DNA of 64,000 bases from Escherichia phage teqdroes. The translations under genes and the position numbers were made by a program. The notes beneath the pieces were generated by a model. That model did not search any database. It was not told the origin of the DNA and saw only the letters and a program-made list of their open reading frames with translations. This document shows, in pieces, positions 8,235-64,000 of this stretch. The stretch lies in sequence record NC_054932.1, one strand, 5' to 3'. The stretch's first letter is position 1, and each line of letters starts with the position of its first letter.

Positions 8235-10007
8235 TTAATTAACTCCAGTCGCATCAAATACACCAGGAGCAGTCGTGCTCGTTACGGGTGTCATATTATG
8301 AACGACAGTATTTTTCTTAATAACATTATTAGTATTATTGATTGAAGGAGATGCTTGTTGAACAGGAGCTTGCTGTGCTTTGTTCTTTTCAATCACCTGG
8401 ACTTGTTTCGCTTCTGGTGATTTAGCAGAAGTTTCAGGTTTGGCATTAGGCTGATTTTTCTTGAGCTCTTGATAAGTAGCATCAATTTTAGAAAATCTAG
8501 CAGCAAGTTCTTTTTTAACTGCCGGTGAATTATTTAAATCCGGGTCATCCATCCGTTTTTTAAGGTCTTCATAGGCAGCTTCAACTGATTTAACCGTTGA
8601 GTCTTTACTCATATCAGCTGAATCAGCATATTTTTCAAAGCGAATCATTGCGGCACGGGCTTCATTAGCCTTCATTAAAGCATTTTTTCTTTCTTCAGGT
8701 GAAAGTTGCTTTAATTTTTCTTCTTCTGCCGCACGCTCTTCGTCGGTAGTTAGTGCTTCTTTATTATCAACCCCACGAATCCAATTAGATGCACGAGTTT
8801 TCCAATTAGCAATTTTATCTAATCCTTTTGCTATCGGACCAAGGTCTCCATTCATTCGTTTATCTTGATAATTTGCAACTTTTTCCTGGTCTTCTTTATT
8901 GAGAGATGCTCCAGTAGAATTTTGGAAATTTTCTAATGCTCTTCCTTCTACTTCATCAGCAGTATCCTTCATACCAGGAATGACTCGAAGAATTGCAGCA
9001 GATAATTTAGCCATACCTAATTGAATAAGTTCACCTAAATTAAAAAGAACACTTCCGAGTCCTTCAACAATAGCTGCTGTCAATCCACCCCAATCTCCCG
9101 CTTCCCAAAGTTGTTTAATTTTATCAATAGAATCAAAGATGCTCTGTAATAAAGGACCCCATGTTCCGGTTTCGCTAGAGAATTTAGTAAAGTCAGTATT
9201 AAATAAATCCCAGGCTTTTGAAAATTTATCTGACCAATATTTAAAATGAACCATCAGCAAGTCTATTCCAATAACAACAGCCAATATCATTGCAGTCATT
9301 TTAGCAGCTTCAATAGCAGCACTGATGGTGTACTTAAATAACATGCTTGATATTTTATCACTAATTGAAATGGATTTCTTAAATCCAAAATCAACTGTCT
9401 TTGTTAATTTATCTAAAGCTTGAGATAATTTTAAGTTAAATGCTTCTTTTTTCTGTTTTTCTTCTGGTGATTCTTGCTTTGGCTCAACTGGCTGAGGGGT
9501 AGGGAAAAAATCAGCGTCAGGATCATTATTAACTGCTTCGGGAGCCGGTAATAAAGGACCCACAGATTCAGCAGTATCATCCTCAACGACTTTAACAGGA
9601 ATAGCGCTTTCAACTGTAGCTAAACTAGTCCCAGTCTGTTGAATTCCAGCTGTCTGAATTTTTTGTTCTAATAAACTCGTTAATTTATCTAATTTGCTTC
9701 CGAGTGATTCACCGATTTCTTTATTAATATTGTTGCCAATTTCGACAGTTTCAGCAATTAACTCAGAACCGGCAGTAGTATCACTCACTGCGCTTTCTAC
9801 GTTACCAATTGCTCCAACTATTTCATTCGATTTTTCTTCGACAGTTTGAGCTATTAATTCAGAAGCAGCTTGAGTATCATCCAATTTCGTAGATATATCA
9901 TTAAGTCCAGATAAAGTGTTAGAAGCAGATTTAGCCGCTTCCTGTGTTGGTTTATTATCTGAAATAACTTTTCTACGCATCGTTTGCATTTCTTGTGGCT
10001 TTTTCAT
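8235..10007 (-). CDS. 29: baseplate hub subunit / tail length determinator
   Basis: 590-aa ORF; length and order match T4 gp29. Confidence 0.85.
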   Translation of the reverse strand: MKKPQEMQTMRRKVISDNKPTQEAAKSASNTLSGLNDISTKLDDTQAASELIAQTVEEKSNEIVGAIGNVESAVSDTTAGSELIAETVEIGNNINKEIGESLGSKLDKLTSLLEQKIQTAGIQQTGTSLATVESAIPVKVVEDDTAESVGPLLPAPEAVNNDPDADFFPTPQPVEPKQESPEEKQKKEAFNLKLSQALDKLTKTVDFGFKKSISISDKISSMLFKYTISAAIEAAKMTAMILAVVIGIDLLMVHFKYWSDKFSKAWDLFNTDFTKFSSETGTWGPLLQSIFDSIDKIKQLWEAGDWGGLTAAIVEGLGSVLFNLGELIQLGMAKLSAAILRVIPGMKDTADEVEGRALENFQNSTGASLNKEDQEKVANYQDKRMNGDLGPIAKGLDKIANWKTRASNWIRGVDNKEALTTDEERAAEEEKLKQLSPEERKNALMKANEARAAMIRFEKYADSADMSKDSTVKSVEAAYEDLKKRMDDPDLNNSPAVKKELAARFSKIDATYQELKKNQPNAKPETSAKSPEAKQVQVIEKNKAQQAPVQQASPSINNTNNVIKKNTVVHNMTPVTSTTAPGVFDATGVN

Positions 10008-52352: not shown

Positions 52353-53049
<697 letters not shown>

Positions 53050-53061
53050 TTTCACAAAGTT

Positions 53062-53091
53062 GTTTACATACTGATGAGGTAGTGATACTAT
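53062..53091 (+). promoter_or_regulatory. early promoter with stem-loop over -10 (PeSL-like) for ipI
   Basis: GTTTAC, 18 bp, TACTAT; -10 embedded in inverted repeat GATGAGGTA/TATCTCATC. Confidence 0.6.
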
Positions 53092-53121
53092 TATCTCATC
53101 AAAATTAATTAGGAAAATAAA

Positions 53122-53409
53122 ATGAAAACATTTAAAGAATTTACTTCTACAACTACCCCGGTTTCTACCATTACCGAAGCTACTCTTACTTCTGAAGTTA
53201 TTAAAGCAAATAAAGGACGAGAAGGTAAACCAATGATTAGTCTGGTTGATGGCGAAGAAATCAAAGGTACTGTTTACCTAGGTGATGGGTGGTCTGCTAA
53301 AAAGGATGGTGCTACAATCGTTATCTCTCCTGCCGAAGAAACTGCGTTGTTTAAAGCTAAACACATTTCTGCAGCACATCTCAAGATTATTGCTAAAAAT
53401 CTTTTGTAA
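53122..53409 (+). CDS. ipI: internal protein I (capsid-packaged anti-restriction protein)
   Basis: 95-aa ORF; N-terminal capsid-targeting sequence MKTFKEFTS with TITE/A protease site; early promoter upstream. Confidence 0.8.
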   Translation: MKTFKEFTSTTTPVSTITEATLTSEVIKANKGREGKPMISLVDGEEIKGTVYLGDGWSAKKDGATIVISPAEETALFKAKHISAAHLKIIAKNLL

Positions 53410-53428
53410 TAAACAATTTCACAAAGTT

Positions 53429-53458
53429 GTTTACACGGGGTTTTAGTAGTGATACTAT
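53429..53458 (+). promoter_or_regulatory. early promoter (PeSL-like) for 53495 ORF
   Basis: GTTTAC, 18 bp, TACTAT; conserved upstream TTTCACAAAGTTG. Confidence 0.6.
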
Positions 53459-53500
53459 TACCCTATCAAAACAAATGTGAAATTGGAGAATAAAATGAAA
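53447..53500 (+). repeat. 54-bp direct repeat, copy A (promoter -10 / RBS / ATGAAA cassette)
   Basis: Identical to 53747-53800. Confidence 0.8.
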
Positions 53501-53728
53501 ACGTATCAAGAATTTATTGCTGAAGCTGCTGATGTAAAAGTTGAGTTTATTTACATTGGTAAGAAAGATAAAATGGGCGAAATGCCTCATGGAGTTCTTC
53601 GTGATGCATTAGATAATTTCGGTCAACTCGGTGGTGAAGAGTTTGGTGATTATTTTGTTATCTATGGACCAGAAAAAGTCATCGAGAAATGGGCTGATAA
53701 ATATAAATCAATTTTTCGTAAAAAATAA
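53495..53728 (+). CDS. internal-protein-like small protein with CTS
   Basis: ATG at 53495 gives MKTYQEFIAEA N-terminus (ORF track begins at upstream GTG); early promoter cassette upstream. Confidence 0.55.
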   Translation: MKTYQEFIAEAADVKVEFIYIGKKDKMGEMPHGVLRDALDNFGQLGGEEFGDYFVIYGPEKVIEKWADKYKSIFRKK

Positions 53729-53758
53729 GTTTACTTTTAGATAGGGTAGTGATACTAT
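53729..53758 (+). promoter_or_regulatory. early promoter with stem-loop over -10 (PeSL-like) for 53795 ORF
   Basis: GTTTAC, 18 bp, TACTAT; inverted repeat ATAGGGTA/TACCCTAT flanks the -10. Confidence 0.6.
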
Positions 53759-53800
53759 TACCCTATCAAAACAAATGTGAAATTGGAGAATAAAATGAAA
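53747..53800 (+). repeat. 54-bp direct repeat, copy B
   Basis: Identical to 53447-53500, exactly 300 bp downstream. Confidence 0.8.
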
Positions 53801-53980
53801 CGTTGTGAATTAATTCGAAATGTTGCTATTGCAATTTCTGCTTCCGCTTTTAGTTTTTCAATGTTTGTTGGATTTATATGTGGATTATTGACTACAGCAG
53901 AAAATGTGTTTTCACTTGTAGTAGCATTTTTAATTGGTTTAATTGCTATTGTTATGGATAAAATTTCTAAAGGTGAATAA
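53795..53980 (+). CDS. small hydrophobic membrane protein
   Basis: ATG at 53795 behind duplicated promoter/RBS cassette; hydrophobic helices. Confidence 0.45.
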   Translation: MKRCELIRNVAIAISASAFSFSMFVGFICGLLTTAENVFSLVVAFLIGLIAIVMDKISKGE

Positions 53981-54391
53981 ATGAGTATTAACGAATATTA
54001 TGTTTATGCCGGGGATTATGCAAATCCTTCTCATTTTGAAGGTAATTTAATACCTGATAAAGTTTTTAATACTCCTTTTGAAGCGTGGAGTTGGATTGAA
54101 AGTAAAAATGGATTTTCTTACCGTTATGTTGAAGTAACTGATTGGAGAGGAACTAAATATCCTAAAGACCATTATTACGTAAATCCATCTAAGGTAAATT
54201 TTCTTTTATTCGCAGGTGATAATTATTATCCTTGTGGCGGATATGATGATTTAATTGCGTATGCTGAAACAGAAGATAAACTGCGTGATATCATTAAAGA
54301 AAATGAAAATAAACCAGATTATGGTTCCAATCGTTTCGACTGGTGGCAAATCGTAAATGCCCATACTCATGCTATCGTTGATAGAGGCTGA
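53981..54391 (+). CDS. hypothetical protein (136 aa)
   Basis: ORF ATGA-coupled to upstream gene. Confidence 0.5.
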   Translation: MSINEYYVYAGDYANPSHFEGNLIPDKVFNTPFEAWSWIESKNGFSYRYVEVTDWRGTKYPKDHYYVNPSKVNFLLFAGDNYYPCGGYDDLIAYAETEDKLRDIIKENENKPDYGSNRFDWWQIVNAHTHAIVDRG

Positions 54392-54393
54392 TA

Positions 54394-54681
54394 ATGATTC
54401 TTTATGCTAAAGTATCATCCATTGAAAATGGATATAAATATGATCAAGAAGCAGCTAAAGCCTTGATTGATGATTATGGCATTTTAACATGTTTTGAAGT
54501 TGAAAAGGTTTACATTGACCGTTCATCTTCTCAGGTTAAATTAGTGAAGGAAGACCGTAAATTTAATACAGTAAATTTTGATTTCTTTATTGAAACAGAA
54601 AAAGGTCCTCTTGAATATGATATTTTCAAGAATCCTTTGGGTCTTGAATGCATCGTAAATATGTATTATCATAAATGGTAA
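54394..54681 (+). CDS. hypothetical protein (95 aa)
   Basis: ORF 2 nt after previous stop. Confidence 0.5.
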   Translation: MILYAKVSSIENGYKYDQEAAKALIDDYGILTCFEVEKVYIDRSSSQVKLVKEDRKFNTVNFDFFIETEKGPLEYDIFKNPLGLECIVNMYYHKW

Positions 54682-54684
54682 ATA

Positions 54685-54709
54685 TGCTTTAAGAATTATT
54701 TGTTATTAT
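54685..54709 (+). promoter_or_regulatory. candidate middle promoter (MotA box TGCTTTA plus TATTAT) upstream of tRNA cluster
   Basis: MotA-box-like motif with correctly spaced -10, about 70 nt before tRNA-Gln. Confidence 0.4.
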
Positions 54710-54778
54710 TAACTCATACCGCACTGATTAATACCCTCTATCATCAAGGGTTCTTGCTAAAGAGCCTTTGTTAATAAT

Positions 54779-54851
54779 TGGGAATTAGCCAAGTTGGTAA
54801 GGCACTGGATTTTGATTCCAGGATGCAAAGGTTCGAGTCCTTTATTCCCAG
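54779..54851 (+). tRNA. tRNA-Gln (anticodon TTG)
   Basis: Cloverleaf by eye: acceptor TGGGAAT/ATTCCCA, T-loop TTCGAGT, anticodon loop TTTTGAT. Confidence 0.8.
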
Positions 54852-54852
54852 C

Positions 54853-54939
54853 GCGAGAATGGTCAAATTGGTAAAGGCACAGCACTTAAAATGCTGCGGA
54901 ATGATTTCCTTGTGGGTTCGAGTCCCACTTCTCGCACCA
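54853..54939 (+). tRNA. tRNA-Leu (anticodon TAA)
   Basis: Acceptor GCGAGAA/TTCTCGC, long variable arm, T-loop TTCGAGT, CCA encoded. Confidence 0.8.
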
Positions 54940-54944
54940 AATTT

Positions 54945-55018
<74 letters not shown>

Positions 55019-55022
55019 ATTT

Positions 55023-55673
55023 ATGACTCGTCGTGAGACGCTCAGTTCTTTATTAGGGACTGATATGCATTTTTATCTTTATAAAATAACAAATAAAATT
55101 AATAATAAAATTTATATTGGTGTGCATTCTACCGAAAATTTAGATGATGGATATATGGGTTCTGGTAAATTATTAAAAAGAGCCCAAGACAAGTATGGTA
55201 TAGAAAATTTCTCTAAAGAAATATTAGAGTATTTTGATGATAAAGAATCTATGCTTGAAGCCGAGAAAAATATTGTCACAGAAGAGTTTTTAAATAGACC
55301 AGATGTGTATAATTTAAAACTTGGCGGAGAAGGTGGATGGGACCATATAAATAATTATCCTATGACAGATCAGCAACGCGAATTAATTTCATTGGGTGTT
55401 AAAAAGGCACATTCTAACGGAAAATTAAAAGGATGGTCTTCAAATGGATTAATGAAGAATGGCTTTGCTGGTAAAAATCATTCTCAAGAAGCTAAACGTA
55501 AAATAGCAAAAGCAAACGAAGCAAAAGTTTCTGCGGATGAAAGAAAAAGAAGAATAGAAATTTCTAAATTATATGATTTTTCTAAGCGTGGTGAATTATC
55601 TAAATATGCTAAGCATATTGGCGTAAGTCATACTCAAGCAAAAAGAATTCTAAATCAAATTAACAATATATAA
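55023..55673 (+). CDS. segB: GIY-YIG homing endonuclease
   Basis: GIY..YIG motif (FYLYKITNKINNKIYIGVHS); inserted in tRNA cluster as T4 segB; start may be ATG 55065. Confidence 0.8.
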   Translation: MTRRETLSSLLGTDMHFYLYKITNKINNKIYIGVHSTENLDDGYMGSGKLLKRAQDKYGIENFSKEILEYFDDKESMLEAEKNIVTEEFLNRPDVYNLKLGGEGGWDHINNYPMTDQQRELISLGVKKAHSNGKLKGWSSNGLMKNGFAGKNHSQEAKRKIAKANEAKVSADERKRRIEISKLYDFSKRGELSKYAKHIGVSHTQAKRILNQINNI

Positions 55674-55680
55674 ATATTTG

Positions 55681-55770
55681 GAGGCGTGGCAGAGTGGTTT
55701 AATGCACCGGTCTTGAAAACCGGCAGTCGCTCCGGCGACTCATAGGTTCAAATCCTATCGCCTCCGCCAG
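55681..55770 (+). tRNA. tRNA-Ser (anticodon TGA)
   Basis: Acceptor GGAGGCG/CGCCTCC, long variable arm, T-loop TTCAAAT, CCA. Confidence 0.8.
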
Positions 55771-55776
55771 TTTTTG

Positions 55777-55852
55777 CTGATTTAGCTCAGTAGGTAGAGC
55801 ACCTCACTTGTAATGAGGACGTCGGCGGTTCGATTCCGTCAATCAGCACCAA
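55777..55852 (+). tRNA. tRNA-Thr (anticodon TGT)
   Basis: Acceptor GCTGATT/AATCAGC, anticodon loop CTTGTAA, T-loop TTCGATT, CCA. Confidence 0.8.
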
Positions 55853-55853
55853 G

Positions 55854-55928
55854 GCCCTGTAGCTGGAAGGTTCAAGCAAGCGACTCATAATCGCCAGATG
55901 GTGGTTCAATTCCACCCAGGGCCACCAA
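55854..55928 (+). tRNA. tRNA-Ile (anticodon CAT; Ile2-type, could be Met)
   Basis: Acceptor GGCCCTG/CAGGGCC, anticodon loop CTCATAA, T-loop TTCAATT, CCA. Confidence 0.7.
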
Positions 55929-55940
55929 ATTATGAATTAG

Positions 55941-56027
55941 GGGAGTTATCCCGTAGAGGTAGCGGTGTGGACTGTAAATTCATTGTCATTGCGACTCGGG
56001 TGGTTCGACTCCACCACTCCCCACCAA
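55941..56027 (+). tRNA. tRNA-Tyr (anticodon GTA), class II
   Basis: Acceptor GGGGAGT/ACTCCCC, loop CTGTAAA, long variable arm resembling E. coli tRNA-Tyr, T-loop TTCGACT; anticodon stem has two G-U pairs. Confidence 0.6.
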
Positions 56028-56031
56028 TTTG

Positions 56032-56106
56032 GATGTGTAGCTCAATGGTAGAGCGATCGCCTGTTAAGCGATTGGTTATAGGTTCGAATCCTATCACGTC
56101 CGCCAA
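56032..56106 (+). tRNA. tRNA-Asn (anticodon GTT)
   Basis: Acceptor GGATGTG/CACGTCC (one G-U), loop CTGTTAA, T-loop TTCGAAT, CCA. Confidence 0.7.
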
Positions 56107-56219
56107 ATTTGTGACAACTGTCACATTAATATCTACTTGACGCGATTATAGGGGTTGAACTGATCACTCTTCTCTTAATTTCGTGTGAAGACATCTTGAT
56201 TGTTGGAGTAGGTATTAAT

Positions 56220-56295
56220 GTGGCCGTAGTTCAGTTGGTAGAACTCGAGATTGTGATTCTCGTAGTCATGGGTTCGACTCCCATCGGTCACCCCA
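56220..56295 (+). tRNA. tRNA-His (anticodon GTG)
   Basis: Acceptor GTGGCCG/CGGTCAC, loop TTGTGAT, T-loop TTCGACT, CCA; no encoded G-1. Confidence 0.65.
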
Positions 56296-56299
56296 ATTA

Positions 56300-56375
56300 C
56301 GGGGCATAGCTCAGAAGGAAGAGCAAGGACCTTCTAAGTCCTAGGTCGTAGGTTCGATCCCTACTGCCTCGACCA
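56300..56375 (+). tRNA. tRNA-Arg (anticodon TCT)
   Basis: Acceptor CGGGGCA/TGCCTCG, loop CTTCTAA, T-loop TTCGATC, CCA. Confidence 0.75.
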
Positions 56376-56393
56376 ATTATAAGTGAGGAAAAT

Positions 56394-56744
56394 ATGAAAG
56401 GTAATGTTTATTTAGTAGTTCATGATTTAACATTTTACTTCAATGAATATGAAAAACATATCTCATTTCGTGAAATTAATTTACTTTATCAACACGCGGA
56501 TTATATTTATATTCAAAACGAATTTGGTCATTGGCAATTTCTCAAAAATCGTTCATTTGGCTTAGATGGTTACGAATACTTTGAACGTAAAGACCTTTTA
56601 GATAAAATTCCGTTATCTACGCAATATCAAAATCACAAATCTTTATATAAATGCCGTCCAATTCGAAATGTTGAATCCGCGTATGAAGCAATTGATTTAT
56701 GGCGTGAACGCCGTAAACAGATTGATGCTTTAAAAGAATATTAA
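56394..56744 (+). CDS. hypothetical protein (116 aa)
   Basis: ORF 18 nt after tRNA-Arg with GAGG RBS. Confidence 0.5.
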   Translation: MKGNVYLVVHDLTFYFNEYEKHISFREINLLYQHADYIYIQNEFGHWQFLKNRSFGLDGYEYFERKDLLDKIPLSTQYQNHKSLYKCRPIRNVESAYEAIDLWRERRKQIDALKEY

Positions 56745-56749
56745 GAAAC

Positions 56750-57081
56750 CGGGTCGCTACCGGTAAGTCGTCGGACTGATGTTCCCTGAGTAAGGAATTG
56801 CGTTAATAATCTTTGCGTTTATTGATGCCCTCTTACATCACAGCAGAAACGGCGCACCGAATTATCGATTCGAGGAAATATCTTTGCCGTAAGCCGAGTA
56901 GCGTTTTTGACGGAACGTTCGGATATGGTCGAGATATGGCCTTTTAAAAATATTGAGTAGCGTCAACTGCTTAATAACCGGGTTCGAATCCCGGCGTTTC
57001 GTACAAACACTTGCCTTAGCAGGTGGAACCCCGACAAGGTTGCCGCAAGGCTTAGCCCCGACCGAAAGGTTGGGGCTTTTT
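56750..57081 (+). ncRNA. putative stable structured RNA locus (tRNA-like T-arm; possible species 1/2-type RNAs)
   Basis: About 330 nt with no plus-strand ORF, higher GC, tRNA-like element CCGGG-TTCGAAT-CCCGG, ends in GNRA-hairpin terminator. Confidence 0.3.
57054..57081 (+). terminator. rho-independent terminator (GNRA hairpin plus T5)
   Basis: AGCCCCGACC-GAAA-GGTTGGGGCT then TTTTT. Confidence 0.65.
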
Positions 57082-57083
57082 GG

Positions 57084-57091
57084 TATAAATA
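57084..57091 (+). promoter_or_regulatory. late promoter TATAAATA for the 57128 CTS protein
   Basis: Exact motif 37 nt upstream of ATG, immediately after terminator. Confidence 0.5.
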
Positions 57092-57127
57092 AGTATATTA
57101 AAACCACGAATTAAAACAGGAAATAAG

Positions 57128-57601
57128 ATGAAATCATATGCTCAATTTTTAAATGAAGCGGTGTTAAATGAAGCATCTAGCACCGAAATTCAAGCTGTCG
57201 CAAAAGCAGCCATTGCCGCGGGTAAATATTCCTATAAAGATGCTTCCGATGAATCACGATTCCAATTTGCTCGTGATATGAAAGCCGAAGGATTTACAGG
57301 GAATGCAGTTAGTATGGCCTGGAAAAGTTTAGTTGCTACTGGCGCTGCTTTTGCAAAGGCTTCAGGTAAACCTGCTCCTAAAGCAGATCCTAAAGCTACA
57401 CAAGAAAAAAATATTGTTAAAGGAATTATCTCCAAATATGAAGCTATCCTTAAAGAGCTTTTAGTAATCAAAACTGAAGGTCAAAAGTTAGCTCGTGCTT
57501 ATAGTTTCAAAGATAACCCACATGCTCACTCTCTTGAGTATGTTGAAGACATCCAAAAAATTATTAAAGACCGCATTTGGTCTGCTAAACAAATCAAATA
57601 A
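57128..57601 (+). CDS. internal-protein-like protein with CTS (157 aa)
   Basis: N-terminus MKSYAQFLNEA resembles capsid-targeting sequence; TATAAATA late promoter upstream; terminator downstream. Confidence 0.55.
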   Translation: MKSYAQFLNEAVLNEASSTEIQAVAKAAIAAGKYSYKDASDESRFQFARDMKAEGFTGNAVSMAWKSLVATGAAFAKASGKPAPKADPKATQEKNIVKGIISKYEAILKELLVIKTEGQKLARAYSFKDNPHAHSLEYVEDIQKIIKDRIWSAKQIK

Positions 57602-57608
57602 CATTCTT

Positions 57609-57637
57609 AGTCCCAACCGAAAGGTTGGGACTTTTTG
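57609..57637 (+). terminator. rho-independent terminator, near-copy of 57054 module
   Basis: AGTCCCAACC-GAAA-GGTTGGGACT then TTTTT. Confidence 0.65.
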
Positions 57638-57769
57638 GTATCTAGGCCTTTCTGGGCCTCTCTAGGCATCATTTAGTTTCTACCCTTTATAATATATTAT
57701 CCTATCTTTTAATTGCCCCTCCTGACCCTAGAATTCCCTAAAACTTTTTAAAAATTTTTTCACAAAACT

Positions 57770-57799
57770 GTTTACATCCCTTTTCTTCCATGGTACTAT
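57770..57799 (+). promoter_or_regulatory. early promoter (GTTTAC, 18 bp, TACTAT)
   Basis: Conserved upstream TTTTCACAAAACTG element as at 53050 and 53416. Confidence 0.55.
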
Positions 57800-57842
57800 A
57801 CAACTATCAACTACTGATACAGAAAACAACTCGGAGAACGAA

Positions 57843-58106
57843 ATGGATAATTACGGCGAACTGTTCAACTTCTTTATGAAATGTGTTTCAGAAGATTTCG
57901 GTCGTACAGTGAATGATATTAAAGTTATCGGTCCTGATCATCCGATGTTTGAAACTTATGCGGTAATGGGCAATGAAGACGGTCAGTGGTATACTGTAAA
58001 GGTTGTGATTAACATGTTCACTGCTGAAAGTTATGTTAAACTGTCTTCTAAAGTTTACCATGATAACGACGAAATCGCAGAAGAATATTTCAATAATATG
58101 AAATAA
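57843..58106 (+). CDS. hypothetical protein (87 aa)
   Basis: ORF behind early promoter GTTTAC/TACTAT. Confidence 0.5.
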   Translation: MDNYGELFNFFMKCVSEDFGRTVNDIKVIGPDHPMFETYAVMGNEDGQWYTVKVVINMFTAESYVKLSSKVYHDNDEIAEEYFNNMK

Positions 58107-58107
58107 G

Positions 58108-58143
58108 TTTACATAGGCTCATGATTGAGATATTATGAGCCTA
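58108..58143 (+). promoter_or_regulatory. early promoter with stem-loop over -10 (PeSL-like)
   Basis: GTTTAC, 17 bp, TATTAT; perfect inverted repeat ATAGGCTCAT/ATGAGCCTAT around -10. Confidence 0.6.
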
Positions 58144-58162
58144 TACAAATGAGGAAAACATT

Positions 58163-58498
58163 ATGAAACGTAACTTTAGTAAAGCTTTTTGTAATAGAAA
58201 TAATTATCCTGAAGAGCTTTTTGAATCTAAGGACTTTAAAGAGTTTAACGAACGTTCTCAAAACATGCCTGTACAATGGGTGTTAGATTATGCCAAACGT
58301 ATCTTTGAAGGCGTGCGGGATATTTGTCCTGATGATGAAGCTCCTTATTTTAAAAAGGCTTGGGAACTCGCCAACCAAGCATATATCAATGCTTTAGAAT
58401 CTTCTAAAGGTACTGACGATGATTTTATTTTATTAGCTATCAATGATGCCGTTATTGAGGCCATCAACGTCTTTATCGACGAGCTAGACGAAGAATAA
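58163..58498 (+). CDS. hypothetical acidic protein (111 aa)
   Basis: ORF behind early promoter with stem-loop over the -10. Confidence 0.5.
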   Translation: MKRNFSKAFCNRNNYPEELFESKDFKEFNERSQNMPVQWVLDYAKRIFEGVRDICPDDEAPYFKKAWELANQAYINALESSKGTDDDFILLAINDAVIEAINVFIDELDEE

Positions 58499-58527
58499 GT
58501 TTACAATCTATTAAAACGTGATATTAT
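58499..58527 (+). promoter_or_regulatory. early promoter (GTTTAC, 17 bp, TATTAT)
   Basis: Extended -10 GTGATATTAT. Confidence 0.55.
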
Positions 58528-58554
58528 CTAATTATACCAACCTAAGGAAATACT

Positions 58555-59148
58555 ATGAACACACTGAAGAAAATTGTTGAGTTTATTCGCACTAAACTTG
58601 GTTCTGCTATGGCTAAAAATCTATCTGTTGAAGAACAGTATACTGCTGCAGCAGCAAAACTACTTGATAAGATTAAAGATCTAAAAACTGCTTCTGTTAA
58701 ATCTATTAATGAAGAAAAGCGTATTCGTGAACTTATTGTCGAAAAGAATAAGCAGGCCGAATCAAAAGAGCGTGAAATTCGCAAGCTTCTTTCGGAAGGT
58801 CAAGATGTAACAATGCATGCTAAACTTGGTTTACTATATCGTCGAACAGCTGAGCAGTTGACTACTAAAGCTGATGGTTATGCTGAAATGCGAATTGAAA
58901 TCGCCAAGAAAGTAGTTGAGTTAGATGATGCTCGCCAAGAACTTGCAGTTAAATTGGAATATATCCGTGAAACTCGCGCCGCGAATGCCCTCGGAATTAG
59001 TACTGCCGATGATGTAGTTGAAATTGCAGCACTGACTAAGGTTGATATTGAAGATACTCTTGCTCGAGTTGAAACCTTTAATGGTAATATTTCTGGGGTT
59101 GAAACTACCTCTGCCGATGTTCAGGAATATATTAATTCTCTGAAATAA
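58555..59148 (+). CDS. hypothetical coiled-coil protein (197 aa)
   Basis: ORF behind early promoter; long heptad-like helices; UUCG hairpin downstream. Confidence 0.5.
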
Positions 59149-59154
59149 TGATAA

Positions 59155-59168
59155 GGGGCTTCGGCCCC
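59155..59168 (+). terminator. UUCG-tetraloop hairpin after coiled-coil ORF
   Basis: GGGGC-TTCG-GCCCC; no clear U-run, so possibly RNA stability/processing element. Confidence 0.35.
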
Positions 59169-59189
59169 TATTACTTGGAGTAAATAGGA

Positions 59190-59798
59190 ATGAAAATGCA
59201 AAGTGATTTCAATTCAATGTTTGAAGAATTCCAAAGACAAGTTGATGTTCCAGACCAATTATTAAATGCTCTTAAACGTATGGCAGAAGGACGTAATTAT
59301 TATTGGGGTTCTTCATATGAAACTGATGAAAGTCTTTCTGGAAGATTTTCTAGAGGTAAAAAGTCTTTAATACGTCCTGGAATACTTATTAACAGTATTG
59401 AATCAATTCATTCATTGACATGTGATTTTGATGTTGAATTTACTGATTTCATTTCTCCTGAATGGTCAGTTTGTTATTTAAACGACGATTTTGATTATCT
59501 CGGTGTTTATAGTTTAAGTGATGCATGGTTTAAACGTAATTTACAAAAGTCAAATTTATTTTATATTGATACTACTGTAAAATTTCGGGGCAAGAAATAT
59601 TTCTTTACTCTTATAGTTGATTCTGAAACTAAGCATGAAAATAAGCGTATTCTTAGTAAAAAGAATATCTTAACTATTGTTGATGATCTTTTTGATAAAT
59701 TCGTGGAAAATCCTAGTTTTGAAAGCGATTTATTACTAGAAAAATTTGTTAAGGAATGTAGAGAATATGTCAAAGCCATCAATGTATCTTCCAAGTAA
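59190..59798 (+). CDS. hypothetical protein (202 aa), C-terminal FVKECREY tail
   Basis: ORF with GGAG RBS; 3' end overlaps next gene start. Confidence 0.5.
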   Translation: MKMQSDFNSMFEEFQRQVDVPDQLLNALKRMAEGRNYYWGSSYETDESLSGRFSRGKKSLIRPGILINSIESIHSLTCDFDVEFTDFISPEWSVCYLNDDFDYLGVYSLSDAWFKRNLQKSNLFYIDTTVKFRGKKYFFTLIVDSETKHENKRILSKKNILTIVDDLFDKFVENPSFESDLLLEKFVKECREYVKAINVSSK

Positions 59799-60159
59799 AC
59801 CCTTAAAGTATGAATTAAAGCGCCAGCTAATTTCTACTGATGTATTAATAGGTCCTGTAATAGCTGTATCATTTGTAATTCTACTGGGGGTTGGAATAGT
59901 TATAGATGTTATGACTGATATTGAATCTAATATAATATTTGCGTCAACATTAATTCTTCCAATGATAGTTCCATTTTTATTAATACCTGTAAATTGGGTA
60001 GGATACTGGTATCAAGGAAGGCATTATCGTAAACGCGTACGTGATTGGAAAGCACAGTGTAAAAAGATTAAAAAGGAACATCAGCTTAAACTTGCTGCGT
60101 ATGAATTTGATGAAATTATGAAATTTGTTAAGGAATCACGATGCAAAAGCCAAAACTAA
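59767..60159 (+). CDS. small 2-TM membrane protein, C-terminal FVKESRCK tail
   Basis: ATG at 59767 with AAGGAA RBS (ORF track starts at upstream TTG); two hydrophobic helices. Confidence 0.5.
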   Translation: MSKPSMYLPSKPLKYELKRQLISTDVLIGPVIAVSFVILLGVGIVIDVMTDIESNIIFASTLILPMIVPFLLIPVNWVGYWYQGRHYRKRVRDWKAQCKKIKKEHQLKLAAYEFDEIMKFVKESRCKSQN

Positions 60160-60503
60160 ATAAAGTCAAATATTCGCTTCCTGAGTCATTTTTAATTTTT
60201 GCTGTGGCGTTGGCTGCAGCTCTTGCGGGTAGTCTTTTTGGATTGTTAATTGACTGTCTTATTTTAAACATTGACGGCACAGTAAATATAATAGAAGTTT
60301 GGAGTGAACTTCACTATACTAAAATTATTTCATTATTTTCATTCTTTGGTACCATGTTATATTTTCATTATGATAATTTTAAAATAAATTGGCAAAGAAA
60401 AAAAGATTACAAAATACAATTAAAGGAATATAATAGCTACATGTCTTATATTGAAAAAGAATCAATGGAAGAGTTTGTGAGTGATTGCAGGAAAATCAAA
60501 TGA
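60141..60503 (+). CDS. small 2-TM membrane protein, C-terminal FVSDCRKIK tail
   Basis: ATG 60141 with AAGGAA RBS embedded in upstream gene; two hydrophobic helices. Confidence 0.5.
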   Translation: MQKPKLNKVKYSLPESFLIFAVALAAALAGSLFGLLIDCLILNIDGTVNIIEVWSELHYTKIISLFSFFGTMLYFHYDNFKINWQRKKDYKIQLKEYNSYMSYIEKESMEEFVSDCRKIK

Positions 60504-60988
60504 TTTTAAAAACTCGCTGGTATGATTTAGATGACGGGGATGATGGCATTTCAGTTGATAGAGTTGACTGGAATGGCTGTTCCGAAGATATGAAAAATTT
60601 GCTGATTAGGGAGTTTAGAATGGGATATCAACCAGTTAAGCCATCTACTGCAACAGATGATAAATTCGTGTGTATTCATAATGGTCGCGCTAAATTAACG
60701 AACGCTGATTGGTTCACAGATAAAATTATGATTCTGTGGTACATTATTAGTTTTCCTGTGACATCATTTGTATTTTGCTTCTTTGGAGAAAGTCCAGTAG
60801 ACAGAACGGGAGATTGGATTATTTTAACCATACTTGTTAATATTTTTACAGCAGCAATACTATCTGGGATATGGTACACGTTCATTGAAATGCCATGGCG
60901 TTTACGCAGACAACAAAAGATTTTTGATGAAAAGAAATATACCCAAAATTTAAATAGCTTTATCACTGAATGCAGGAAATTAAAATGA
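60500..60988 (+). CDS. small 2-TM membrane protein, C-terminal FITECRKLK tail
   Basis: ATG 60500 in ATGA overlap with upstream stop (ORF track starts at TTG 60485); AGGAAA RBS. Confidence 0.5.
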   Translation: MILKTRWYDLDDGDDGISVDRVDWNGCSEDMKNLLIREFRMGYQPVKPSTATDDKFVCIHNGRAKLTNADWFTDKIMILWYIISFPVTSFVFCFFGESPVDRTGDWIILTILVNIFTAAILSGIWYTFIEMPWRLRRQQKIFDEKKYTQNLNSFITECRKLK

Positions 60989-61425
60989 AAACATTATCAG
61001 CTGGTATTATCTTTATGACAGAAGATAAAGATTTATTTATGGGTCGGGTTACTGGTTCTCGTAAGCCTGGAATGATGGCACATCGCTGGGATATTCCAAA
61101 AGGTCGTGTAGAATGTTCTGATTTGAGCGCATTAGATGCAGCACGAAGAGAATGTTTAGAAGAGACCGGTTTTAGCAATTATAATCCAGACCTTCTAGAA
61201 GACCTAGGTGTATTTAAATATTCTAGTAATAAAGACTTACAGTTATTTTATTATACGATTCCAGTAGAGCATGAGATGTTCAGAAATTGCCATTGCGAGT
61301 CTTATTTTGAAAATAAAGATGGCGTTATGATTCCAGAGATGGACGCTTTTGCTCTTATTCCTCGTACTCAGTGGCAATATGTGATGGGTCCTTCACTTTA
61401 CCGAATAATGAACAACCTCTTTTAA
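60970..61425 (+). CDS. nudE: Nudix hydrolase
   Basis: Nudix box (GRVECSDLSALDAARRECLEETGF); directly upstream of e as in T4; start may be ATG 60985 in ATGA overlap. Confidence 0.8.
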   Translation: MQEIKMKTLSAGIIFMTEDKDLFMGRVTGSRKPGMMAHRWDIPKGRVECSDLSALDAARRECLEETGFSNYNPDLLEDLGVFKYSSNKDLQLFYYTIPVEHEMFRNCHCESYFENKDGVMIPEMDAFALIPRTQWQYVMGPSLYRIMNNLF

Positions 61426-61956
<531 letters not shown>

Positions 61957-61960
61957 AGTT

Positions 61961-61990
61961 GTTTACTTTCTCCTAGAATTGTGATAGTAT
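61961..61990 (+). promoter_or_regulatory. early promoter for denV
   Basis: GTTTAC, 18 bp, TAGTAT with GTGA extension. Confidence 0.5.
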
Positions 61991-62015
61991 ATTCACAGTT
62001 ACTTGGAGGGATAAA

Positions 62016-62432
62016 ATGACTCGTATTAATTTGACTTTAGTATCTGAACTTGCTGATCAACATTTAATCGCAGAATACCGTGAATTGCCGCGTGTTTTTG
62101 GTATAGTTCGTAAGCATGTGGCAAACGGTAAGCGCGTTAAAGATTTTAAAATATCTTCTAAATTTATTTTAGGTTCTGGTCATGTTACTTTCTTTTACGA
62201 TAAGTTAGAATTTTTGCGAAAGCGTCAATCGGACATTATAACGGAATGCTTAAAACGCGGGTTCAGTATAAAAGATACTGAAGTTCCTGACATCAGCGAT
62301 ATTCCAGTAGAATGGAAAAATGATTATAATCCATGCAAATCAGCTATTAAATTGAGTCAACAACGACTTGATGAAAAAATTTTAATGAAACCACATTGGT
62401 ATAAGTATTACGGTAAAAATATTTACATTTAA
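62016..62432 (+). CDS. denV: endonuclease V (pyrimidine dimer DNA glycosylase)
   Basis: 138-aa [20 protein letters not shown]; matches T4 endoV as I recall it. Confidence 0.9.
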
Positions 62433-62441
62433 AGGAAACAT

Positions 62442-62915
62442 ATGAAAACATATCAAGAATTTATCACTGAAGCAGCTATTAATTCTCAAATTATTGCTGA
62501 ATCTTTTACTGATCTTTTGAAATTTAAAAAAGGTCAAAAAATCACTGCTGTATTGGATGATGGTACAGAAGTTGAGATGGATGTACAGGGATATAATTAT
62601 GCAGTAGATGGAAAACTGTATAATAAATCTCATGCTAAATTTGATTCATTTGACGACTTTGTTAATACAGTTGAAGATGAAAAAACTCGTAGATCCATTG
62701 CAACTGGTGATGCTAAGGTTCTTATGGCACATGGTCATGAACGCATTCGCGCTAAACAGAATAAAATGGGTGAAGATAATTTTGCATTAGTTGGTTATCA
62801 ATCTGGTAAACAAACTTATGGCTATCAACGTACTGCTACCATGTATAACAAAAATGGTAAAATTGCCTTTGTGAATAGTAAAGGTTCTATTCAGTACGTT
62901 AAATCGTTCAAATAA
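62442..62915 (+). CDS. internal-protein-like protein with CTS (157 aa)
   Basis: N-terminus MKTYQEFITEA, a near-consensus capsid-targeting sequence. Confidence 0.55.
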   Translation: MKTYQEFITEAAINSQIIAESFTDLLKFKKGQKITAVLDDGTEVEMDVQGYNYAVDGKLYNKSHAKFDSFDDFVNTVEDEKTRRSIATGDAKVLMAHGHERIRAKQNKMGEDNFALVGYQSGKQTYGYQRTATMYNKNGKIAFVNSKGSIQYVKSFK

Positions 62916-63020
62916 GCAAATAAGAAATATGGGAACAACCTGGACCTCATGATTCTGTGAGGGATTCCCGCCAACCTGTAATAAGGTCGAGCCTGAGCGC
63001 GGTAATGGGTAAATACAGAA

Positions 63021-63608
63021 ATGGAAAATTCATGCGCCATGGAATGGCCCAAATTTAGAGATAACAAAATGAGAACATTTTTAACTGGTCCTTATCTATC
63101 CCTGATGAATGCTTTTACACACCATTCTGATGCTAGAGTAGAAGAAATTTGTAAAAACGATTATATCCCACCATTTGAAGACTTACTCAAGCAGTATTGC
63201 ACACTTCGATTAGATGGTGGCAGACAATCCGGTAAATCAACTGCTGTGACTAACTTTGCTGCTAATTGGCTGTATGATGGTGGAACAGTTATTGTTCTTT
63301 CTAATACTTCAGCTTACGCTAAAATTTCTGCAGGCCACATTAAAAAAGAATTTTCTCGTTATTCTGGCGATGATATTCGATTCCGCTTATTTACCGATTC
63401 TGTCCGTAGTTTTATCGGTAATAAAGGAAGCAAGTTCAGAGGTTTATCGCTTTCGCGGATTTTGTATATAATCGATGAGCCTGTTAAATCTCCTGATATG
63501 GATAAAATTTACGATATTCATATTGAAACTGTGCACCACTGTTGCAATAGTAAATGCTGCATTGGTGGTATTACTCGTCCACAGTTTTTCATAATCGGAA
63601 TGCAATGA
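63021..63608 (+). CDS. hypothetical small P-loop NTPase
   Basis: Walker A-like GGRQSGKST and Walker B-like ILYIIDEP; start could be ATG 63069. Confidence 0.5.
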   Translation: MENSCAMEWPKFRDNKMRTFLTGPYLSLMNAFTHHSDARVEEICKNDYIPPFEDLLKQYCTLRLDGGRQSGKSTAVTNFAANWLYDGGTVIVLSNTSAYAKISAGHIKKEFSRYSGDDIRFRLFTDSVRSFIGNKGSKFRGLSLSRILYIIDEPVKSPDMDKIYDIHIETVHHCCNSKCCIGGITRPQFFIIGMQ

Positions 63609-63934
63609 TGACAGACACACAGCTTTTCGAATATCTTTATTTTTCGCCAAAAACTATTAAAAATAAATTGGTGAATCATTTTGAAATTTTGGCAAATAAT
63701 AACGTCTTGAGCGAATTTTATCCTAAGCAATACAAATTACAAAAAGGCGTATTCAAAGGATGCAGAGTTTTGTGCACTGCTCCTAATGCAAGATTAATGA
63801 ATAAAATTCCATATTTTACCATGGAATTTATTGATGGACCTTTTAAAGGACTAATCACCCAAAGTTTAATGGCATATGATTCTGAGCCATTTTTAATTAA
63901 AGAACAGTCTTGGATAAATTTATTTTCTAATTGA
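63605..63934 (+). CDS. hypothetical protein (about 109 aa)
   Basis: ATG 63605 in ATGA overlap with upstream stop (ORF track starts further upstream at 63554). Confidence 0.45.
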   Translation: MMTDTQLFEYLYFSPKTIKNKLVNHFEILANNNVLSEFYPKQYKLQKGVFKGCRVLCTAPNARLMNKIPYFTMEFIDGPFKGLITQSLMAYDSEPFLIKEQSWINLFSN

Positions 63935-63940
63935 GGTTAT

Positions 63941-64000
63941 ATGAAAGCATATCAAATTCTTGAAGGCACACATAAAGGTACTATTTATTTTGAAGATGGT
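63941..64000 (+). CDS. CTS-like ORF, 3'-truncated by window edge
   Basis: ATG with GAGG RBS; N-terminus MKAYQILEG resembles capsid-targeting sequence; runs off window. Confidence 0.4.
   Translation, partial: MKAYQILEGTHKGTIYFEDG

Follow-up and report, generated by a model that had tools for sequence, protein, structure and literature searches.

The DNA considered here is a 64,000-nucleotide (nt) stretch of the genome of Escherichia phage teqdroes (NC_054932.1; hereafter the window), and our subject is its last 11 kb, in which an initial annotation, made from the letters alone, had seen at least five genes whose products begin with the capsid-targeting sequence (CTS) of the T4 internal proteins. 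Our analysis makes it highly probable that the window has four T-even internal-protein genes, three of them known (ipI, ipVI and ipIV) and one, the open reading frame (ORF) starting at position 57128, a new candidate, and that the gene starting at 63941 is not of this kind. The five ORFs are listed below in window positions (aa, amino acids; slashes mark putative cleavage sites).

53122..53409, + strand: ipI, internal protein I; 95-aa precursor, 95/95 identical to T4 IpI
53495..53728, + strand: ipVI-type internal protein, 77 aa; phrog_8111 'internal virion protein' (1.8e-50)
57128..57601, + strand: candidate internal protein (phrog_2280; RB32ORF132c), 157 aa; N-terminus MKSYAQFLNE/AVLNE/ASS
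62442..62915, + strand: ipIV internal protein, 157 aa, DUF7412; 157/157 identical to PST ipIV 'internal head protein'
63941..64000, + strand: 5' end of vs.6 (first 20 codons in the window); first 20 aa identical to T4 and fD1 vs.6

The general principle behind this set of genes is known. T-even internal proteins have a capsid-targeting tag that is cut after Glu by gp21, bodies that are unrelated to one another and injected anti-defence roles (PMC3012670, PMC9026906, PMC12373910), and, as cited in PMC3012670, PMC12373910 and PMC4122927, it was Repoila et al. (1994) who described a diverse range of injected proteins with only the CTS in common. The initial annotation was right in kind and not new; as a set of CTS-tagged injected proteins has been in print since 1994, our finding is largely a known one, and what it adds is a single plausible new family, found at a third locus. 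Our own results concern features of the sequence, homologies and conservation, and the anatomy of promoters and terminators; CTS function, the specificity of gp21 and the targets of IpI and of the IpVI orthologue are taken from the literature. According to that literature the first 10 residues of the IpIII CTS are enough for targeting, residues 4 and 7 serving targeting and residues 8 and 10 processing, and the gp21 cleavage motif is L/I-x-E (PMC9026906). The aromatic residue at position 4 and Phe-7 attach an internal protein to the prohead scaffolding core, the gp21 prohead protease then cleaves after L/I-x-Glu, and the small mature protein remains in the head and enters the cell with the DNA, where it disarms host defences prior to phage gene expression.

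The capsid-targeting motif in the five N-termini

All five ORF starts and the N-terminal strings quoted for them were found at the coordinates claimed. The signature that they had been said to share, M-K-[TSA]-[YF]-x-[EQ]-[FI], is present at 53122 (MKTFKEF), 53495 (MKTYQEF), 57128 (MKSYAQF) and 62442 (MKTYQEF); MKAYQIL at 63941 breaks it with Ile at position 6 and Leu at position 7, so that 'at least five' genes should read 'four'. The same division holds for the Glu-Ala cleavage site proposed to lie soon after the tag, which is found in the first four proteins and is Glu-Gly at 63941. Specifically, L/I-x-E followed by Ala occupies residues 17-20 in IPI and residues 8-11 in the 53495, 57128 and 62442 proteins, the gp21-type sites being ITE/A (IpI), IAE/A (IpVI), LNE/A twice (57128) and ITE/A (IpIV), while ILE/G at residues 6-8 of vs.6 is atypical.

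When the strict motif was searched for on both strands of the 64-kb window, only those four ATGs matched, against a chance expectation of 0.04 on average and 1 at most in 300 dinucleotide-preserving shuffles; the expectation from amino-acid composition is 0.0017 among 108 ORFs. The strict motif was built post hoc from the tested sequences, and two independent checks were applied. Compared with the published T4 CTS, MKTYQEFIAE (PMC8442874), the 53495 protein matches at 10/10 positions and the 62442 protein at 9/10. The complete 167-kb genome of phage fD1 has the strict motif in only four ORFs, which encode IPI, IpIV, a member of the 57128 family and a protein of 54 aa. Each of the four is flagged as particle-associated, though the 54-aa ORF falls short of the strict threshold of the fD1 paper. 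This last ORF, fD1 g034 (HE956711 17643-17807, minus strand), lies beside the primase gene, starts with MKTYKEFIKEDMVAG, a near-perfect CTS, is a sub-threshold 'ppap' in the fD1 particle proteome and may be another small tagged protein.

Beyond the tag the bodies are unrelated, as had been proposed: pairwise BLASTP between the mature parts gave nothing significant (best E = 0.06). The core idea of an arsenal of injected anti-defence proteins behind a shared tag thus stands for four of the five genes and falls for 63941, which is vs.6. Three of the four, ipI, ipVI and ipIV, lie in known ip loci (57B-tRNA.4; the e/denV region) and are homologous to named Ip families; 57128 does neither, its only family match being phrog_2280 ('unknown function').

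IpI, IpVI and IpIV

The propeptide of IpI is MKTFKEFTSTTTPVSTITE, and a cut before Ala20 gives the 76-aa IPI*. Pfam IPI_T4 matches the 53122 protein (7e-54) over residues 20-95, which is exactly the mature part starting after I-T-E19, and the protein falls in phrog_4363 ('internal virion protein'). The role ascribed to it, the blocking of a type IV restriction system, agrees with published work in which IpI, IpII and IpIII each inhibit a distinct variant of the GmrSD type IV enzyme (PMC12373910). IpIII is required for infection of ECOR17.

The initial annotation recognised only ipI. We found that the 53495 and 62442 proteins are IpVI and IpIV, both of which are named and annotated in PST and in RefSeq. 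The CTS of the 53495 protein, MKTYQEFIAE/A, is the same as that of T4 IpII and IpIII, and the protein is labelled 'similar to T6 Ip6' in RB18, while many records name it ip6 or 'internal head protein'; neither NCBIfam nor Pfam gave a family for it. It is identical to PST IpVI at 59/77 residues and to Bas37_0260 of phage KarlGJung/Bas37 at 62/77 (80%), the latter gene being syntenic just before tRNA.4. According to the HIDEN-SEQ preprint (10.1101/2025.11.20.689424), a phage from which bas37_0260 has been deleted becomes sensitive, specifically, to McrBC of E. coli K-12, and the encoded protein has only its N-terminal packaging signal in common with IpI-III. Given this orthology, the 53495 protein is probably an McrBC inhibitor.

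For IpIV, the CTS is MKTYQEFITE/A and a second site, I-A-E/S, is found at residue 20. The 62442 protein matches Pfam DUF7412 (5.7e-96) and phrog_3155 ('internal virion protein'), a homologue is named 'Ip4' in one Salmonella phage, and the fD1 homologue, g129, is listed as 'Head protein, PPAP'. All IpIV-family homologues start MK[TSQ][YF]x[ED]F..E.

The 57128 protein as a candidate internal protein

By tblastn the 57128 protein is found in 510 phage records, and all 40 among the matches listed are called 'hypothetical' or 'phage protein'. It belongs to no Pfam or NCBIfam family, and a literature search on the name RB32ORF132c returned no paper. Its tag fits the CTS rules, with Tyr4, Phe7 and Leu8-Asn-Glu10/Ala, and a second L-N-E/A occurs five residues on. 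The mature form is predicted to be a protein of about 16 kDa with an isoelectric point (pI) of 9.5, basic like the IpI and IpIV of the window, and its N-terminus is predicted to be AVLNEASSTEIQAVAK if the cut is made after Glu10 and ASSTEIQAVAK if it is made after Glu15.

Members of the 57128 family start MKTYNEFLNES, MKSYAEFLTEQ, MKTYNEFLMTEA, MLEYSEFLKE, MLKFNEFLAE and MKFKEFLAEA; the core of the tag (aromatic-4, Phe-7 and L-x-E) is kept while identity in the body drops to ~40-53%. The family ranges over Tequatrovirus, Dhakavirus, Jiaodavirus and Yersinia phage fHe-Yen9-01, the codons of its tag differ synonymously (e.g. TAT/TAC, TTA/TTG), and some of its N-termini cannot be told from those of the IpIV family. 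Furthermore, the fD1 homologue, g140, which differs by one substitution (Ala5 to Thr), appears among the particle-associated proteins together with the fD1 homologues of IpI and IpIV; those of vs.6, tRNA.4 and e.8 do not. The fD1 preparation was impure, however, and 113/277 phage proteins (41%), including DenV, lysozyme and NudE, were called particle-associated. The fPS-2/65/90 paper contains no virion proteomics.

Structure prediction, suggested in the initial annotation as a check on the mature parts, was run with AF2 for the 57128 protein and IpIV and gained no fold match. The model of the 57128 protein (pLDDT 77) is all-helical, a small bundle at the N-terminus being joined through a Pro/Lys-rich linker to a long hairpin, and its first 17 residues are poorly ordered; it has no match in the PDB with E < 0.1, and BFVD gave its own family only. 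The alpha/beta model of IpIV (pLDDT 77, pTM 0.72) likewise has no PDB fold match with E < 0.1. A search of solved structures by sequence returned nothing significant for the 57128, 62442 and 53495 proteins, and phmmer with the mature 57128 protein against 1.84 billion representatives returned T4-like relatives only. Two large repeat proteins that appeared in the phmmer output match in a short 'AGxYSYK' motif only and were judged spurious.

Several points weigh against our interpretation of these genes. With regard to 57128: (i) the sole proteomic support comes from the impure fD1 preparation and, given the fraction of proteins called there (113/277), the likelihood ratio that it contributes for packaging is only ~2; (ii) its packaging and cleavage are inferred from the sequence; (iii) position 6 is Gln in this allele, whereas the characterised CTSs have Glu, although many 57128 homologues do have Glu; (iv) the body is without homology or fold match to characterised proteins, so that any function assigned to it is pure inference; and (v) the late promoter described below would suit non-virion late proteins too. 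With regard to IpVI, the function assigned is that of an orthologue which has 80% identity to it and is known from a preprint, Ip specificity is narrow (PMC12373910), and most of the substitutions between IpVI and Bas37_0260 are in the C-terminal third.

Points of this kind could be taken to mean that 57128 encodes a late protein that stays in the cytoplasm and is not packaged, its CTS-like N-terminus being a relic of recombination or having another role, for example in translation initiation. The non-specific fD1 particle proteome and Gln at position 6 fit such a protein, as do the facts that 'MK' starts are common in the genome and that 5' modules do recombine at these loci. We nevertheless regard this as unlikely: aromatic-4, Phe-7 and L-x-E are kept across genera despite divergence of the body and changes of codon, the DNA upstream bears no relation to what precedes the other ip genes, and in other phages an unrelated neighbouring gene bears the same tag (see below). 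Our preferred interpretation remains that the 57128 protein is an internal protein. That it is packaged, processed and injected seems likely to us; that it is an anti-defence effector is a realistic prospect, to which we would give somewhat less than an even chance.

A late-promoter cassette between the tRNA/rnaC terminator and e.8

The elements that surround the 57128 gene are as follows.

57054..57082, + strand: intrinsic terminator at the end of the tRNA/rnaC unit, upstream bracket copy (terminator scan; aligns with the single T4 copy)
57084..57091, + strand: T4-type late promoter TATAAATA, 36 nt before the 57128 ATG
57609..57637, + strand: second, near-identical terminator hairpin, downstream bracket copy, directly 3' of the 57128 gene (terminator scan)

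With a late promoter and a terminator of its own, the 57128 gene forms a self-contained cassette; its site, which has the tRNA/rnaC terminator on one side and e.8 on the other, is a third locus in addition to the two known for ip genes. The promoter sequence TATAAATA is kept 26-40 nt upstream in every homologue examined, namely those of KAW1E185, RB18, fD1, ESCO10 (Dhakavirus), KpV477 (Jiaodavirus) and 8 IMG/VR contigs, and this arrangement is present even at the ~50%-identical gene of a Klebsiella phage. The two bracketing hairpins have the sequence CTTAG[C/T]CCC[G/A]ACCGAAAGGTTGGG[G/A]CTTTTTGGTAT. At the corresponding junction T4 and PST have a single hairpin and lack the gene, and it therefore looks as if the cassette has been gained or lost by recombination between the repeats.

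This anatomy bears on another possibility: the 57128 protein might be directed to the prohead core to assist assembly or scaffolding, in the manner of gp67/gp68, and then be degraded or expelled instead of reaching the host cell as an injected effector. A late-only promoter, where the genes of the ipI locus have early-promoter cassettes, would suit such a role, as would the two tandem L-N-E sites and a helical model whose long hairpin recalls scaffold proteins. T4 and PST lack the gene, however, so heads can be assembled without it; gain and loss of the cassette follow the pattern of accessory ip genes; and the particle-associated flag in fD1 implies that peptides of the protein persist in particles. 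We therefore hold a scaffold role to be quite improbable and favor the view that 57128 encodes an accessory internal protein.

Immediately downstream of the 57128 homologue in phage Bas37 is bas37_0243 (MZ501089 locus, 9029-9592, minus strand), a gene for a 187-aa 'hypothetical' protein that starts with MKTYAEFLTEAAKL, has TAATAAATA 39 nt upstream and occurs in about 165 phage records. We do not claim homology between the bodies of bas37_0243 and 57128, as only the 10-residue tag aligns (BLASTP, hhalign), though both score to phrog_2280. The text of the HIDEN-SEQ preprint makes no mention of bas37_0243 or bas37_0244. With a second tagged gene adjoining the first, the rnaC-e.8 junction behaves like another ip hotspot. 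This leads us to raise, tentatively and as the less probable outcome, the idea that rnaC-e.8 is a third, unrecognised ip hotspot of Tequatrovirus-like phages, in which late-promoter cassettes would deliver CTS-tagged injected proteins (the 57128 family in ~510 records and the bas37_0243 type in ~165) that inhibit defences other than the targets of IpI-IpVI.

Early-promoter cassettes and shared start-region DNA

Three copies of a direct repeat of ~80 nt, each an early-promoter cassette of the PeSL type, are present in the ipI region.

53044..53121, + strand: copy before ipI
53411-53494: copy before ipVI
53711-53794: copy before tRNA.4

PeSL elements were described as mobile regulatory cassettes of T4 and PST, repeated units with a stem-loop that lie where variable genes begin and end and enclose an early promoter of the consensus TTTACW-N17-TAYWAT, and have been tied to shuffling at the ip locus (PMC4122927). 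Judged by their sequence, the three cassettes of the window fit the published ones, and the promoters detected in the ipI and ipVI copies, TTTACA-N17-TACTAT at 53063-53091 and 53430-53458, respectively, match that consensus (PMC4122927). The promoter of the ipVI copy is flanked by AATTTCACA/TGTGAAATT inverted repeats. Between the copies before ipVI and tRNA.4 there is 100% identity along 55 nt; it ends at ATGAAA, after which tRNA.4 goes on with RCELIR. At the ipIV locus (window 62415-62464), the sequence agrees at every position with T4 ipII over 27 nt upstream of the gene and 23 nt at the start of its coding region.

Sharing on this scale raises the question, already put in the initial annotation, of whether the similar N-termini are a by-product of duplicated ribosome-binding site (RBS) and start-region DNA and have no targeting function. 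The DNA that ipIV has in common with T4 ipII, on both sides of the start codon, is what such duplication would leave, as is the single upstream cassette common to ipI, ipVI and tRNA.4. Yet for IpVI the artefact is excluded, because an identical cassette precedes tRNA.4 and the similarity ends at ATGAAA, and it is excluded for 57128 as well, whose upstream DNA and codons differ from those of the other ip genes. For CTSs of the IpII/IpIII type this reading had already been refuted by published fusions, in which this exact CTS carried foreign proteins into the head (PMC9026906, PMC8442874). We consider it extremely improbable. The shared DNA at ipIV instead suggests that RBS and tag travel together as a portable 5' recombination module, and movement of this module is a mechanism of diversification, not an artefact.

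The gene at 63941

By sequence, the gene at 63941 is vs.6 and encodes a GrcA-like glycyl-radical protein, not an internal protein. The full-length orthologue that has the same first 20 aa matches Pfam Gly_radical (PF01228) at 2.8e-18, above the Pfam cut-off, and TIGR04365 at 3.7e-45, which is under the curated cut-off (153 vs 170 bits). The initial annotation read all five genes, vs.6 included, as CTS-bearing internal proteins, and in favor of this vs.6 does start MKAY, with I-L-E as its residues 6-8. It fails the motif at positions 6 and 7, however; there is no TATAAATA within 300 nt upstream of 63941, the gene lying in the early vs.3-vs.8/regB cluster; and vs.6 is absent from the particle-associated set of fD1 even though 41% of the proteins are in that set. 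Because it fails the motif and is missing from the fD1 particle proteome we treat it as a false positive, and a set of five internal proteins seems to us very improbable. We retain the set of four.

The surrounding region

More than 1,100 T4-like phage records match the 11-kb stretch, the best being R5505, RB18 and KAW1E185 at 94-97% identity; the window is a segment of a Tequatrovirus (T4-like) genome, and the stretch is the T-even variable (hyperplastic) region. In the orientation of the window the gene order is 57B, ipI, ipVI, tRNA.4/.3/.2, ten tRNAs split by segB, an ORF and the 57128 gene, followed by e.8 to e.2, nudE, e, denV, ipIV, vs.8, vs.7 and vs.6. The tRNA cluster (54779-56375) comprises ten tRNAs (Gln, Leu, Gly, Ser, Thr, Met/Ile-CAT, Tyr, Asn, His and Arg) and is interrupted by a gene for a segB-type GIY-YIG homing endonuclease (55023-55673); the T4 cluster has eight tRNAs and another composition. 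Between 61462 and 63608 the order is e-denV-ipIV-vs.8, compared with e-ipIII-ipII-denV-vs.8 in T4 and e-ipIII-ipIV-vs.8, without denV, in PST, which places the ip slot of the window on the opposite side of denV from that of T4. The long ORFs of vs.8 (63021-63608) and vs.7 (63554-63934) overlap, and the starts annotated in relatives are internal (179 aa and 109 aa, respectively). The vs.8 product has a weak match to a P-loop/terminase-like PHROG (phrog_2, 4e-6).

Significance

Internal proteins are the first phage molecules to face host immunity, and those characterised so far each block a specific type IV restriction enzyme (GmrSD variants for IpI-III, McrBC for the IpVI orthologue). The present work singles out phrog_2280, a widespread family annotated as 'hypothetical', as a probable addition to the injected proteins, encoded at a new locus. 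Screens for anti-defence functions, and efforts to engineer the host range of therapeutic T4-like phages, would have in the 57128 family a cheap and concrete target.

Comparison with known systems

T4 IpI/IPI*, the GmrSD type IV inhibitor, is the same gene as that at 53122, with the same locus after 57B and the same 19-residue propeptide, and we found no difference between them. IpVI of the window resembles Bas37_0260 and the Ip6 of T6 and PST in its length of 77 aa and in its position between the first ip gene and tRNA.4, and its CTS is identical to that of Bas37_0260; it differs from the latter by 15 substitutions, clustered at residues 46-70, and targeting of McrBC by the window allele would follow from orthology. 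IpIV does not differ from the protein of Yersinia phage PST at any of its 157 residues. Its gene lies between denV and vs.8, whereas T4 has ipIII and ipII between e and denV. The vs.6 protein resembles the internal proteins only in starting MKAY, and its affinity is instead with the autonomous glycyl-radical cofactor GrcA/YfiD, its full-length orthologues carrying the Gly_radical domain.

The closest counterparts of the 57128 protein are T4 IpII and IpIII, with which it has M1, K2, Y4, F7 and E10-A11 in common, S3 and L8 being conservative changes, and which it also resembles in size (16 kDa) and in its basic pI of 9.5. It differs from them in having an unrelated body, in its locus (tRNA/rnaC-e.8) and in its late-only promoter, where the T4 type has an early-promoter cassette.

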